A stretch of 64,000 nt of DNA from Escherichia phage JM10. The notes beneath the pieces were generated by a model. The model saw nothing but the letters and a program-made list of their open reading frames with translations, ran no database searches and was not told the origin of the DNA. Both the position numbers and the translations under genes were made by a program. The stretch's first letter is position 1, and each line of letters starts with the position of its first letter. Positions 1,576 to 29,629 of the stretch are shown here, piece after piece. Where the stretch lies: sequence record PP400777. The stretch is one strand, 5' to 3'.

Positions 1576-2046
1576 TTAATCATGTTTCCACACCCCATCA
1601 GTATTTGACCAAAGTCGCTGATTATCTGATCCTCGCCACAGCTTTTTAGTCGGAAGATTTTTCTCATACTTCCCATCAATAATAACATCAACATATTTAA
1701 GCATTTCTAGTTGTTTAATATCTTCAAACTTATATCCTGTCCACAACCAAATGCTTTTATTTGGATAAAGATTTTTAATAGTTTGAACCACAGAGTGAAT
1801 CACATCTCTGTTATCAGGATAGAGAGGGTCACCTCCGGTTATAGTCAATCCTTCTATATAATCATTATTCAAACATTCAATTAATTGTTCTAGTGTTTCA
1901 CCAGTGAATGGAATACCATTTCTAGCATTCCATGTTGATTTATTATAACACCCTTCGCATTTATGCAAACAACCTGTGACGAAAAGAACGACCCTGCAAC
2001 CAGGGCCATTCACAAAATCGCAAGGATAAAATCTATCATAATTCAT
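1576..2046 (-). CDS. nrdG: anaerobic ribonucleotide reductase activating protein (radical SAM)
   Basis: 156 aa; Cys cluster CLHKCEGCYNK; immediately downstream of nrdD. Confidence 0.9.
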   Translation of the reverse strand: MNYDRFYPCDFVNGPGCRVVLFVTGCLHKCEGCYNKSTWNARNGIPFTGETLEQLIECLNNDYIEGLTITGGDPLYPDNRDVIHSVVQTIKNLYPNKSIWLWTGYKFEDIKQLEMLKYVDVIIDGKYEKNLPTKKLWRGSDNQRLWSNTDGVWKHD

Positions 2047-3322
2047 TGGTGTTTAACCCTATGCATGATTTCTTTATTTTTACCAAGATTAAATCCGCGT
2101 TCGTTCGGATTTCCCAAATAACCGCATGTTCTTCTTATGGTGTTCATCTTTTTAGGATCACTTTCTCCACAAACTGAACAAACAAATCCGTTTTCAGTAG
2201 GAGTCATTTCATGGGTACTTCCACATGTAAAACATTTATCTACTGGCATATTAACACCAAAATAATCTAAATGTTGTGCAGCATAATCCCAGACAGCCTC
2301 AAGTCCCTTTAAATTGTTTTTCATATCTGGAAGTTCAACATAAGAAATGTGACCACCTGTCGCAATGAAATGATATGGCGCTTCACGAGAAATCTTTTCA
2401 AACGGAGTAATATTTTCTTCTACTGAAACATGGAAACTGTTAGTGTACCAGCCTTTATCGGTGACATCCTTTACACTTCCATATTTTTCTGTATCAAGTT
2501 TACAGAAGCGATAACAAAGGTTTTCAGCAGGAGTAGAATATAAACTAAAAGCAAATCCAGTTCTTTCAGACCACTGTTTAAGATGAGCATTCATTTTAGT
2601 TAAAATTTCTTGTCCAATATCACGACCGACAAGAATATTCAATTCGTGAATACCGATGTATCCCAAAGACACTGAACTTCTACCGTTTTTAAATAACTCA
2701 ATTATGTCGTCATCAGGTTTAAGACGAACCCCGAATGCACCTTCTTGGTAAAGAATAGGAGCTACAGTTGCTTTAACACCCTTTAAAGAACTAATTCTAC
2801 ACATCAAGGCTTCAAAACACAGATCCATTCGTTCATTAAATAGCTCAACAAATTTCTGTTCATTGAACTGTGTTCCAATATAAGAATCTAACGCAATACG
2901 AGGAAGATTCAATGTTACAACACCAAGATTATTACGTCCGTCAAGAATTTCATTTCCAGTTGAATCTTTCCATACACTCAAGAAACTACGACAGCCCATT
3001 GGAGAAACTGGAACTGAAGAACCAGTAATAGCTTTATTATTCTTAGCTGAAATAATATCAGGATACATCCTTTTGCTTGCGCACTCTAAAGCAAGTTGCT
3101 TAATGTCGTAATTCGGATCGTCTTTATAAAGATTAACGCCTTCTTCAACGAACATAACAAGCTTAGGGAAAATAGGAGTTATCCCATCACGTCCAAGACC
3201 TTTAATACGATTTTTCAGAATTGCTTTCTGAATCATTCGTTCGGTCCAGTCAGTTCCCGTACCAAATGTAATTGTTACAAAAGGAGTCTGTCCGTTTGAA
3301 CTGAAAAGTGTATTTACTTCAT
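2043..3322 (-). CDS. nrdD: anaerobic ribonucleoside-triphosphate reductase, exon 2
   Basis: C-terminal glycyl-radical region; joined to exon 1 gives a 605-aa product; 3' splice site inferred after an intron-terminal G. Confidence 0.8.
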
Positions 3323-3348
3323 CATTATATTCAGCATGAGTCGCAAAT

Positions 3349-4119
3349 TCATGCCCGTTTATATGAAACAACAAAATTTGGATAGTCCATAGATATGCAA
3401 CGTTCTTTTATAGTGCTAGGATGAAAATTTAGCGCTTTAGCTGCTTCTATATAAGACGTATACTTAATACCGTCAACAACCACATATTCAGGAACTTTAT
3501 GAATAGTAGTCTTAATACTCAAAACAAGAGGATGAGTTTCGACTTCACTTTCAGTGCAATTTAAATATTCCGCTGCTTTTTTAAAACTTCTAAAAGTTTT
3601 ATTTTTAAGCTTTATCGATACTTGTTTTTTACTTTTTCGACTATTGATATTATTTTGCACATGTTCCTTAGATCTTCCGTTTTTAGCATAATATTCAGCT
3701 ACAGAAGATTTTATATTGTTTTTATGAGATTCGGATAACACTTTACCCTTATGAGCATCTCTTAATTTTTGAATATGTTCTTCAGTATCCGGATGCTTAT
3801 AAAACTTTTTACCGCCTATGGATTTATTTAAACATTTTTTGCTATAAAAATATTTACGTATGACCTCTTCTTCATGTTTTAATGCATCTTTATAACTATC
3901 AAATGTTTTTAAAATTATCCATTTAGTAGGTGTATCAGTTTTTAAGCGTTCATTTATATACTTAGATGACGTTGTGTAAGTTTTCCAGTTTGTGGGCTTG
4001 TTTTTAATTGTTCTAAATTTTTTATAACCGATATAAATGTCGCCATTAGAAAACTTAACTAAGTATGTAAATGCGTCTTTATCTTTTATTTTAGTACAAC
4101 GTCTTTTTATCCATTTCAT
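3349..4119 (-). CDS. intron-encoded GIY-YIG homing endonuclease (I-TevII-like)
   Basis: 256 aa; N-terminal TYL..(x8)..IYIG module; C-terminal NUMOD-like DNA-binding repeats; lies inside the nrdD intron. Confidence 0.65.
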   Translation of the reverse strand: MKWIKRRCTKIKDKDAFTYLVKFSNGDIYIGYKKFRTIKNKPTNWKTYTTSSKYINERLKTDTPTKWIILKTFDSYKDALKHEEEVIRKYFYSKKCLNKSIGGKKFYKHPDTEEHIQKLRDAHKGKVLSESHKNNIKSSVAEYYAKNGRSKEHVQNNINSRKSKKQVSIKLKNKTFRSFKKAAEYLNCTESEVETHPLVLSIKTTIHKVPEYVVVDGIKYTSYIEAAKALNFHPSTIKERCISMDYPNFVVSYKRA

Positions 4120-4148
4120 TGTTTCACCTCGTATTCATAAGATAATCT

Positions 4149-4156
4149 TATTTATA
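4149..4156 (-). promoter_or_regulatory. T4 late promoter TATAAATA inside the intron, upstream of the endonuclease ORF
   Basis: exact TATAAATA on minus strand about 30 nt upstream of the ORF start. Confidence 0.5.
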
Positions 4157-4367
4157 CAAGATGACTGCTGCATGTCGCCATGCAGATTAGACTATATCTT
4201 CATCTTTCGATGCCGGCCGTTTCGAATAGCATTAGCTTCTATTCTACACCGCTACATTCATCACGGTTAGTCGTTAGGCATTTAGTTCAAAAGAACATTT
4301 AGCACGGGATTGTCTACTAGAGAGGTTCCCCGTTTAGACCGGTTTTACATGAGCCTGAATTAAATTA

Positions 4368-4905
4368 ACTCATACGCCTGGAATGCATCGTATACATCTT
4401 TTTCTGTTTTAGATTGAGCATAATTCAACGCATCAGCGATTTGCCATTTTTCTGCATCCTCAATATGTTTTGCATAGGTGCGTTTAACATAAGGAGAAAG
4501 AACTTTATCTACATTCGCAAATGTAGTTCCGCCATACTGGTGTGAAGCAACTTGTGCGGTAATTTGTGCCATAATTGCAGTAGCAACACCAATAGATTTA
4601 GGCGTTTCAATTTGAGCATTGCCTAATTTAAATCCATTCTCAAGCATCCCCTTTAAATCGACTAAACAGCAATTGGTAAACGGAAGAGCAGGAGAATAAT
4701 CAATATCATGCATGTGAATGATTCCACTTTCATGCGCATTCATAATAAAAGACGGGACCATATTTTTGGCAATGTGCTTAGACACAATACCAGCCATAAG
4801 GTCCCGTTGAGTTGGAAAAACACGAGAATCTTTATTAGCATTCTCGTTTAAAAGATCTTTATTAGTTTTATGAATCAGTCCTTCAATTTCTTTTTCAATT
4901 TTCAT
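4368..4905 (-). CDS. nrdD: anaerobic ribonucleoside-triphosphate reductase, exon 1
   Basis: N-terminal NrdD sequence; frame stops just inside the intron. Confidence 0.8.
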
Positions 4906-16370: not shown

Positions 16371-16680
16371 CTAGGCGGTCCACCATAGAATTGCATGCTG
16401 CCTTATCTTTAGGTTCCGCCACCGAGCATTCTAATATTTGCCATTTTTTATAGTATCTTTTAATTAAGGTAGACGCCTTGAACCTACTAGACGCCCCATC
16501 TTTTTCTCCGTCTTTATACGCATATAACAATTTTTGTGAAAAATCTACTTTACACTCTTGACTTTTACCACAATAATCAGACGCCGTTCTGTTTGTATAC
16601 TCCGTTACATCAGTATATGTAGTATTAGCAAGAGCGTTAAATGAAACCAAGCCAACTATTAAAGCCAACATTTTGGTCAT
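16333..16680 (-). CDS. secreted protein
   Basis: N-terminal signal-peptide-like MTKMLALIVGLVSFNALA. Confidence 0.4.
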   Translation of the reverse strand: MTKMLALIVGLVSFNALANTTYTDVTEYTNRTASDYCGKSQECKVDFSQKLLYAYKDGEKDGASSRFKASTLIKRYYKKWQILECSVAEPKDKAACNSMVDRLVDSYTRGLAASD

Positions 16681-17219
16681 TCTTTTATTTCCAGTAGTTT
16701 ATTTGATTTAAGGTAATTAGCCTTTTCTAGGACTTCAGAAGCATATTTACTTCCAGCACTTGTCTTCCATCCTGCATTATATGAGGATATAGCTTTTCTT
16801 ATATCCCCGTTATGTATATTTAACCAATAAGAAAATTCGATATAAGCCCATCTGGCTGAATTAGACCGCTTAGATAGCATTTTCTTAATTTGGGCATCAG
16901 TCATATTATAACCAAGCTGGTTAATTCTTGCCCTCATTGTCGGTAGATAATTTTGGAACATTCCATACGCATGGTGACCTTTCTTATCTTTAAGATTAAT
17001 ACCGGCAGATGATTCCTGCCATAGTATTGCGGCCATTATGTATCCAAGTCCTTTCTTATGCATATTTTCATGCGTTTTAAATTTTCCGTCCTTAGAAAAC
17101 TGTTCCCCAAACTGATAAGCATAATTCAAGTTATCGAGTTGGACATTACTAAAAGTATGCTCGGAGCTATGTGCTGATAATGAAAGAGCAAATAGACCAG
17201 CGAGTAGTGCTTTTCTCAT
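16677..17219 (-). CDS. secreted lytic transglycosylase-like protein
   Basis: signal peptide; WQESS and SYNAGW motifs typical of SLT domains. Confidence 0.5.
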   Translation of the reverse strand: MRKALLAGLFALSLSAHSSEHTFSNVQLDNLNYAYQFGEQFSKDGKFKTHENMHKKGLGYIMAAILWQESSAGINLKDKKGHHAYGMFQNYLPTMRARINQLGYNMTDAQIKKMLSKRSNSARWAYIEFSYWLNIHNGDIRKAISSYNAGWKTSAGSKYASEVLEKANYLKSNKLLEIKE

Positions 17220-17747: not shown

Positions 17748-17963
17748 TTATTGATAAAATGGAGTTAAAGCCCAAGATTCTTTAGATACTATATTGGCGA
17801 AATGCCTCATCTCTTCGATTTGGCGACGACGCTGGTCAGCATAGTCTTCTTCGCCTTCTTCCTTACAATCTTCAAGGTCTTCTTCAAGATACTTTAAGTA
17901 TTCACTACAAATTTTGTTGACCTTTTCTTGAAAGTCCAATAACCCAGTAATAGTAGAAGCCAT
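17748..17963 (-). CDS. hypothetical small acidic protein (vs.3 position)
   Basis: 71-aa ORF. Confidence 0.4.
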   Translation of the reverse strand: MASTITGLLDFQEKVNKICSEYLKYLEEDLEDCKEEGEEDYADQRRRQIEEMRHFANIVSKESWALTPFYQ

Positions 17964-18239
17964 TAGTATTTTTCCTCAGGTCGAAATACTGCACGACATG
18001 CCCACATGCTGGCTTCTTTTAGATGTTGCTTAGCATACTTAAGAGCCTGCACTGCATCCATATCTTCTTTGGTTTGTTGCTCTGTTTCATTTTCTTTCAA
18101 GATATATGCTTCTTCAATCAGAGCATCAAACAACAATCCAAGACGGACTTCGGCATCTTTAATAGCGTTCACTTTACCGATTTTATCATCGGTATGCGGC
18201 TTGTAGCCTTTGATGTCTTCAATCGACATAAGGAATTTC
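17963..18239 (-). CDS. Acb2-like protein (T4 vs.4 position); candidate cyclic-nucleotide sponge
   Basis: 92 aa from MSIEDIK; position and size match T4 vs.4; assignment from recall only. Confidence 0.4.
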
Positions 18240-18443
18240 CTCATCAGTGGCAAGGTCATATTCGACCAATTGGATAGGCTCATTAATACCATATCCACGT
18301 ACAGTGATATCAGTTGACGGATATTTTCCAGTAATATCACCCGTTCTAAATGCTTCAATGAATGATTGCTCGCCTGAGCAACTAAACCAGGCGGCAAAAC
18401 ATTTTAAAACATCTTCAGACCCTTCTATAATCAATTTAGCCAT
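18219..18443 (-). CDS. hypothetical small protein
   Basis: 74-aa ORF. Confidence 0.4.
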   Translation of the reverse strand: MAKLIIEGSEDVLKCFAAWFSCSGEQSFIEAFRTGDITGKYPSTDITVRGYGINEPIQLVEYDLATDEEIPYVD

Positions 18444-18805
18444 TATAGACTCTCAGTAAAGGTACGAGCGATAACGTCGCGCTGCTGTTCCGGAGTCAGA
18501 GAGTTAAAGCGAACTGCATAACCGGATACACGGATGGTCAGCTGCGGATATTTTTCCGGATGCTTAACTGCATCTTCCAGAGTTTCACGACGCAGAACGT
18601 TAACGTTCAGATGTTGACCACCTTCAATTTTAACTTTAGGTTGATGTTCAATTTCAATTTCACGGGCATGCAAACCGTAGAAAATTTCCGGGTCTACAAT
18701 AGCGTCTTCTTTAAAAGTCTTAGAGACAATAATCCGGGCTTGAGTACCGTCTTCAAAATAAATAGTGCCTTTATGCGCACCTTCAAGAATTTGATATGCT
18801 TTCAT
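18443..18805 (-). CDS. autonomous glycyl-radical cofactor (GrcA/YfiD-like)
   Basis: C-terminal [25 protein letters not shown] is the pyruvate formate-lyase glycyl-radical signature. Confidence 0.75.
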
Positions 18806-18811
18806 ATAACC

Positions 18812-19183
18812 TCAATTAGAAAATAAATTTATCCAAGTTTTTTCTTTAATCAAAAATGGGTCGGAATTAAACGCCATTAAACTTTGAGTGATTAATCCCT
18901 TAAATGGCCCATCAATAAATTCCATTTTGAAATGCGGAATACTAGTCATCAACCGTGCATTAGGAGCAGTACAAAGAACCTGCTGCCCTGCGAACGGACC
19001 TTTAGTCAAACGATATCGTTTAGGTTTAAAATGGTAAATCTCGTAATTTTCTACAAGAGCCCTTTTATTGCATACTGGGCTGTTATAACAATATTCAAAA
19101 ACTTCAATAGTGGTCATCATTGCATTCCAATCACAAAAAATTGAGGACGAGCAATACCGCCGATGCAATATTTGCTTTTGCAA
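18812..19183 (-). CDS. hypothetical protein
   Basis: 123-aa ORF. Confidence 0.4.
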   Translation of the reverse strand: MQKQILHRRYCSSSIFCDWNAMMTTIEVFEYCYNSPVCNKRALVENYEIYHFKPKRYRLTKGPFAGQQVLCTAPNARLMTSIPHFKMEFIDGPFKGLITQSLMAFNSDPFLIKEKTWINLFSN

Positions 19184-29472: not shown

Positions 29473-29549
29473 TGGTCGAGGCAGAAGGATTCTAACCTTC
29501 AACCTACGGATTAGAAATCCGTTGCTCTATACAATTGAGCTATGCCTCG
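29473..29549 (-). tRNA. tRNA-Arg (anticodon UCU), CCA encoded
   Basis: hand-folded cloverleaf: acceptor CGAGGCA/TGCCTCG, D-stem GCTC/GAGC, anticodon stem ACGGA/TCCGT, loop TTTCTAA, T-arm GAAGG-TTAGAAT-CCTTC. Confidence 0.75.
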
Positions 29550-29555
29550 AATATA

Positions 29556-29629
29556 TGACCCAGACCAGATTCGAACTGGTAACCTTTCCCTTATGAGGGG
29601 ACTGCTGCTAACCATTGAGCTACAGGGCC
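29556..29629 (-). tRNA. tRNA with CAU anticodon (Met or Ile2-type)
   Basis: hand-folded: acceptor GGCCCTG/CTGGGTC (one mismatch), anticodon loop CTCATAA, T-arm ACCAG-TTCGAAT-CTGGT; 6 nt from tRNA-Arg. Confidence 0.65.

Follow-up and report, generated by a model that had tools for sequence, protein, structure and literature searches.

Vs.6 of Escherichia phage JM10, a probable GrcA-type spare part for oxygen-damaged host pyruvate formate-lyase encoded by a mosaic gene

The vs.6 gene of Escherichia phage JM10 encodes a small protein with a glycyl-radical signature at its C-terminus, and the same phage encodes an anaerobic ribonucleotide reductase (RNR) that also has a glycyl-radical domain. Which of two systems does Vs.6 serve, the pyruvate formate-lyase (PFL) of the host or the RNR of the phage, and where did the gene come from? 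We analyzed a stretch of 64,000 nucleotides of JM10 DNA (sequence record PP400777), referred to below as the window. From the letters alone, the original prediction had described this gene as coding for a stand-alone cofactor like bacterial GrcA/YfiD that could either rescue PFL or interact with the RNR activase NrdG.

The vs.6 locus and its product

The gene and its immediate signals are as follows:

18443..18805, minus strand: vs.6 (phage grcA) coding sequence, an ATG-to-TAA reading frame of 120 amino acids plus stop, 13.8 kDa calculated
18810..18813, minus strand: GAGG ribosome-binding site (Shine-Dalgarno), 4 nt 5' of the vs.6 ATG, read from the sequence
18521..18523, minus strand: codon of Gly95, the predicted radical glycine inside RVSGYAV, aligned with GrcA Gly102 and PflB Gly734

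The gene had been placed in the vs.x block, and synteny with phages T4 and RB32 bears this out. As in these two phages, the order is vs, vs.1, regB, vs.3, vs.4, vs.5, vs.6, vs.7, vs.8, and the block is likewise syntenic with that of phage AV116. Reading frames flanking vs.6 carry RegB and Acb2/Tad1 domains. The 2-kb surroundings of vs.6 match 825 phage records, the best of which are Mosigvirus phages of E. coli (AV116, for example, at 98.5%). The TAA stop of vs.6 shares bases with the start codon of the gene that follows (TAATG), a kind of stop/start coupling that is common in T-even phages, and vs.6 is translationally coupled to vs.5. Around the gene, a scan for promoters and terminators gave no excess over shuffled controls (14 versus 15.8 and 4 versus 3.2, respectively).

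Two neighbors in the block were also assigned. A vs.4 homolog (17963-18397, minus strand) lies two genes downstream of vs.6, with vs.5 between them, and contains the Acb2/Tad1 hairpin domain PF24729 (E = 1.4e-17). Translation probably starts at an internal ATG and yields a product of about 88 amino acids, which we take to be the known T4 anti-CBASS cyclic-nucleotide sponge Acb2. The vs.1 homolog (16677-17219, minus strand) encodes 180 amino acids with a signal-peptide-like N-terminus; vs.1 orthologs resemble SLT lytic transglycosylases (Nolan et al. 2006).

To assign Vs.6 to a family, we compared it with domain models and solved structures. The sole Pfam domain is Gly_radical (PF01228) at residues 60-101, scoring 67 bits (E = 2.1e-18) against a gathering score of 22 bits; the C-terminal PFL glycyl-radical signature originally read in this 120-residue protein is present exactly as quoted, including the PFL-type radical loop RVSGYAV. 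The top NCBIfam model is TIGR04365 (autonomous glycyl radical cofactor GrcA), which spans Vs.6 residues 18-120 and model positions 23-126 of 126 at 158.6 bits (E = 8e-47). This score lies just below the curated equivalog cutoff of 170 bits because the N-terminal part has diverged. The next NCBIfam models are GrcA2, GrcA3 and the formate C-acetyltransferase C-terminus. E. coli GrcA/YfiD (6OWR) is the closest solved structure (E = 1.8e-42), and the stretch 696-759 of the pyruvate formate-lyase PflB comes next (E = 3e-26). By these scores the similarity of Vs.6 to glycyl-radical proteins is far above chance, and the GrcA/YfiD-like identity originally proposed agrees with both the structure and the TIGR04365 match. 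That proposal would have failed had an alignment with GrcA and the PFL C-terminal domain lacked the radical glycine; it is there, as Gly95, and aligns without gaps to both GrcA Gly102 and PflB Gly734. Vs.6 is thus a small stand-alone glycyl-radical domain protein (120 amino acids, 13.8 kDa) without a catalytic barrel.

By sequence and synteny, Vs.6 is the ortholog of T4 vs.6 (NP_049730.1), with 113 of 120 residues identical. Its identity to the T4 and RB32 proteins is 94-95%, and identity of at least 90% together with the syntenic position defines the T-even vs.6 orthologous group. RefSeq and UniProt name the T4 protein "autonomous glycyl radical cofactor" (GRCA_BPT4, P13316), and Vs.6 shares one 90% cluster with P13316. 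The exact JM10 protein has already been deposited under the same name for Mosigvirus phages AV115 and PhAPEC2. A tblastn search placed homologs of Vs.6 in 1,588 phage records, and in 1,532 of these the match is near full length. Among the phages concerned are T4-like ones of Escherichia, Klebsiella, Cronobacter and Aeromonas, as well as T5-like Salmonella phages and one Erwinia jumbo phage. The vs.6 gene is ordinary for the T4-like group, and the original prediction correctly re-identified a gene that is already known and routinely annotated. The identification itself is thus not novel, the T4 protein Vs.6/Y06I having been biochemically validated since 2001.

A probably host-derived 3' half

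Comparison with bacterial grcA divides vs.6 into two parts of different character:

18629..18805, minus strand: codons 1-59, the phage-specific N-terminal part, delimited by amino acid identity, GC content and nucleotide comparison
18446..18628, minus strand: codons 60-120, the glycyl-radical domain, 60 of 61 residues identical to E. coli GrcA 67-127
18453..18625, minus strand: 173-nt core tract, a putative host-derived conversion tract with one synonymous mismatch to E. coli grcA in the nucleotide alignment

Residues 60-120 are thus those of the E. coli protein with a single exception. Over residues 1-59, identity to E. coli GrcA falls to 29%, whereas GrcAs from Enterobacterales and Pasteurellaceae retain 67-94% identity with the E. 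coli protein in this part. Among phages this N-terminal part is shared to varying degrees: 90% with T4, 71% with a Klebsiella Jiaodavirus, 53% with RB43 and 49% with an Erwinia jumbo phage. Across four other T4-like genera the identity is 41-71%, and in two Aeromonas phages it is 25-38%. Base composition follows the same division. The GC content of the N-terminal part is 36.7%, with a window mean of 37.7%; that of the C-terminal part is 48.1%, with 47.7% for E. coli grcA.

To place the 3' half among host genes, we counted nucleotide differences over the last 183 coding nucleotides. The JM10 segment differs from E. coli grcA at 5 positions (178/183 identical), that of T4 at 4 and that of RB32 at 6. 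Over the same segment E. coli grcA itself differs from its Citrobacter counterpart at 14 positions and from that of Salmonella at 29, and the median distance of the JM10 segment to 81 host genes is 30 nt. The encoded peptide is nearly invariant across host genes despite these nucleotide differences; therefore, synonymous sites are free to drift. On these distances the vs.6 3' segment nests inside Escherichia. A further comparison comes from coliphage RB43, in which 59 of the 61 C-terminal residues equal those of E. coli GrcA, yet 33 nucleotides differ. Protein-level constraint therefore cannot account for the near-identity of the T-even segment to E. coli grcA.

The limits of the matching tract are equally well marked. 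We found no E. coli nucleotide match 5' of nucleotide 141 of the vs.6 gene. In the E. coli genomes listed, the top-placed match to vs.6 is grcA, not pflB, with about two further, weaker matches per genome. The E. coli grcA tract occurs at 95% identity or higher in about 624 phage records, and in every full-length match among the matches listed its 5' boundary falls at approximately nucleotide 200 of grcA. This boundary, at GrcA codon 67, falls near the point where the structured domain of YfiD (residues 61-127) begins. The pattern indicates a recent transfer from host to phage that takes in almost all of the structured domain. Most simply, E. coli grcA sequence would have replaced the 3' half of an old grcA homolog of the phage lineage after the split between Escherichia and Citrobacter. 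Because the tract boundary is constant, the data argue for a single event followed by spread among T-even phages.

We also considered recurrent conversion from each phage's own host; our searches did not demonstrate fresh Salmonella or Klebsiella tracts, and the E. coli to T-even event alone is solid. When Salmonella and Klebsiella grcA were used as queries against the phage collection, no hits of at least 95% identity were obtained; for Klebsiella, 15 records fell at 90-95%. Separately, Vs.6 of Klebsiella phage Shinkou (locus L085, 1501-1863) has the motif LLDAVEH, typical of Klebsiella, Salmonella and Enterobacter GrcA, where E. coli has LEDAVKH. The Shinkou gene is 23-26 nt from every host gene sampled, and its motif could reflect either an older host-matched exchange or convergent selection.

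A shallow literature search found no discussion of the vs.6 mosaic. The 3' tract offers a clear, if modest, case of sequence passing from host to phage, and the host-identical tract together with the conserved phage-specific N-terminus are the sole points of this locus that possibly merit a short follow-up.

Function of Vs.6 and the glycyl-radical enzymes it could serve

We consider it very probable (roughly 0.88) that Vs.6 is a phage GrcA-type spare part which repairs oxygen-damaged host PFL, encoded by a mosaic gene with an E. coli-derived C-terminal domain. In this mechanism the 13.8-kDa protein would be made during infection. When active host PFL meets oxygen, its chain would be cut at the site of the radical, Gly734. 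Vs.6 would then bind the cleaved enzyme through its C-terminal domain, which by alignment count is 79% identical over 61 residues to PflB 699-759, and supply a new radical loop. Host PflA would place a radical on Gly95, restoring the conversion of pyruvate to acetyl-CoA and formate.

Andorfer et al. 2021 (PMC8683613), who cite Wagner et al. 2001, report that oxygen-cleaved PFL regains its function through YfiD of E. coli or Y06I of T4. According to these authors, rescue needs the PFL-activating enzyme (PFL-AE) to install the radical, followed by formation of a complex with cleaved PFL, and YfiD and Y06I are the only two validated spare-part proteins. The PFL cleavage, complementation and radical-installation steps described there are in vitro results for the T4 ortholog. 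A 2026 review repeats the YfiD mechanism.

Y06I is presumably the vs.6 product under old UniProt naming. Its size, the UniProt name GRCA_BPT4 and the single tblastn place among the T-even records listed are consistent with this. For JM10 the present analysis establishes the identity, domain, motif and orthology of Vs.6, and the original suggestion that it rescues oxygen-damaged host PFL is supported, in agreement with the databases and with what PMC8683613 reports for Y06I. As for the benefit to the phage, we infer that Vs.6 maintains the fermentative supply of acetyl-CoA, formate and ATP. A phage-made protein may be useful because the host, after shut-off, cannot synthesize its own PFL or GrcA, for instance in a micro-oxic gut with intermittent oxygen. 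The literature searched contained no report of how a vs.6 deletion behaves in vivo.

Because the phage carries its own glycyl-radical enzyme, we mapped the RNR genes in the same window:

1576..2046, minus strand: nrdG, anaerobic RNR activase (Pfam Fer4_12, E = 7e-49, and Radical_SAM)
2043..4905, minus strand: nrdD in two exons (reading frames 4360-4905 and 2043-3374), with Pfam NRDD and Gly_radical on both reading frames
3349-4119, minus strand: GIY-YIG/NUMOD1 homing-endonuclease reading frame in the nrdD intron, separating the nrdD reading frames
4168-4403, minus strand: group I intron core in nrdD (Rfam RF00028, 70.9 bits, focused scan)

The nrdD gene is split by an intron, as is nrdD of T4, and related records annotate "intron-associated endonuclease 2" at the intron site. 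The window therefore does hold the two glycyl-radical modules originally claimed, NrdG and the intron-split NrdD alongside Vs.6. In a motif scan, nrdG was the sole reading frame in the 64-kb window with a CxxxCxxC motif of the radical-SAM type; therefore, the window shows no sign of a PflA-like activase.

The intron also provides a check on the RNA searches. At the gathering threshold, the whole-window Rfam scan returned two tRNAs only and missed the nrdD intron, even though its 70.9 bits exceed the gathering score of 50, so that negative whole-window Rfam results call for caution. The two tRNA genes (29476-29549 and 29556-29629, minus strand; RF00005, 72.6 and 54 bits) match part of the tRNA cluster of T-even phages. 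In AV116, the closest relative in the vs region, nrdD is uninterrupted and a free-standing homing endonuclease lies between nrdD and gene 49; this endonuclease is absent from the JM10 window.

Arrangements in two distant phages bring the homolog and the RNR genes together. In the Erwinia jumbo phage pEa_SNUABM_50 the vs.6 homolog (locus L090, 1495-1857) has nrdD on one side and nrdG on the other; that of Aeromonas phage AsFcp_2 (locus L091, 1501-1878) directly follows nrdD. In both, the homolog is thus inside or beside a cluster of nrdD and nrdG that also includes nrdC and nrdH, which suggests an "anaerobic module" arrangement unlike that of T-even phages.

With NrdD and NrdG encoded in the same window, Vs.6 might serve the anaerobic RNR rather than host PFL, being activated by NrdG, providing oxygen-cleaved NrdD with a replacement radical domain, or both. 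The adjoining genes of pEa_SNUABM_50 and AsFcp_2 are the sole hint in this direction from gene order. Nolan et al. 2006, who counted vs.6 among eleven T4 ORFs of unknown function kept in all T4-like genomes compared, speculated about a role in nucleotide metabolism. We regard an RNR function as quite improbable, since not only the loop but the whole structured domain of Vs.6 is of the PFL/GrcA type and not of the NrdD type (IRRTCGYLGNP). Vs.6 also stands outside class III RNR, as it has no NRDD domain and its loop reads RVSGY rather than RTCGY. Nor did the tblastn search pick up NrdD at E<=1e-5, all but about 11 of the 1,588 records giving a single place. Within JM10 vs.6 lies about 16 kb from nrdG, and for the T4 ortholog PMC8683613 reports both activation by PFL-AE and complementation of PFL. 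The interaction with NrdG put forward in the original prediction accordingly finds no direct support, the Vs.6 loop being PFL-type and that of NrdD quite different. A broader version would have the phage N-terminus kept in order to retarget or broaden activation, for example by NrdG besides PflA, with the docking domain repeatedly reset to host grcA by gene conversion. If true, Vs.6 would bridge the glycyl-radical systems of phage and host. We give this only a slim chance; the host-derived 3' tract on which it draws is well supported, but the NrdG link is not.

The divergent N-terminus bears on two further explanations. The N-terminal region of YfiD governs the efficiency of radical installation, so a divergent phage N-terminus could alter how Vs.6 is activated. 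With 59 N-terminal residues at 29% identity, against the 67-94% seen among bacterial GrcAs, Vs.6 might even be a decoy or modulator that competes with GrcA and PFL for PflA, or occupies PFL, and so redirects pyruvate metabolism. This seems very unlikely to us: the catalytic glycine and a complete, host-identical docking domain are retained, as expected of a working replacement and not of an inhibitor, and functional reconstitution has been reported for Y06I (PMC8683613). The opposite half of the gene, with 3' 183 nt nearly equal to E. coli grcA and a host-like GC content, could instead mark vs.6 as a passenger without function, a piece of host grcA brought in by illegitimate recombination. Hardly any probability attaches to this. 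The reading frame is intact, has a Shine-Dalgarno sequence and is coupled to vs.5; the N-terminal part is kept in several T4-like genera and is recognizable in one T5-like and one jumbo phage. Moreover, about 1,590 phage records carry the gene, it is found in all T4-like phages compared by Nolan et al. 2006, and the evidence for purifying selection is already strong. Repair of host PFL by a GrcA-type spare part is the reading that we retain.

Comparison with known glycyl-radical proteins

The closest characterized relative of JM10 Vs.6 is Vs.6 (Y06I) of T4, which has the same length of 120 amino acids and the same place between vs.5 and vs.7 in the regB-denV block. The two proteins are separated by seven substitutions, A10T, T21I, A35S, I36F, H54P, K57T and R73H, six of which are N-terminal. 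The best whole-region matches of the window are Mosigvirus records, not T4 itself.

E. coli GrcA (YfiD; NMR structure 6OWR) is, like Vs.6, a stand-alone glycyl-radical domain protein with an equivalent radical glycine. In contrast to the bacterial protein, the N-terminal part of Vs.6 is 7 residues shorter and lacks the NSFWLLD motif. The likeness extends to the C-terminal domain of PflB (PDB 1H16, 2PFL), with Vs.6 residues 57-120 aligning gap-free to PflB 696-759 including Gly734. However, Vs.6 lacks the catalytic barrel of approximately 695 residues; it is therefore no enzyme alone and can act solely as a replacement radical domain. NrdD and Vs.6 both carry the Pfam Gly_radical domain with an RxxGY loop, but the NrdD loop reads RRTCGYLG where Vs.6 has RVSGYAV, the two show no cross-match at E<=1e-5, and NrdD has a dedicated activase in NrdG.
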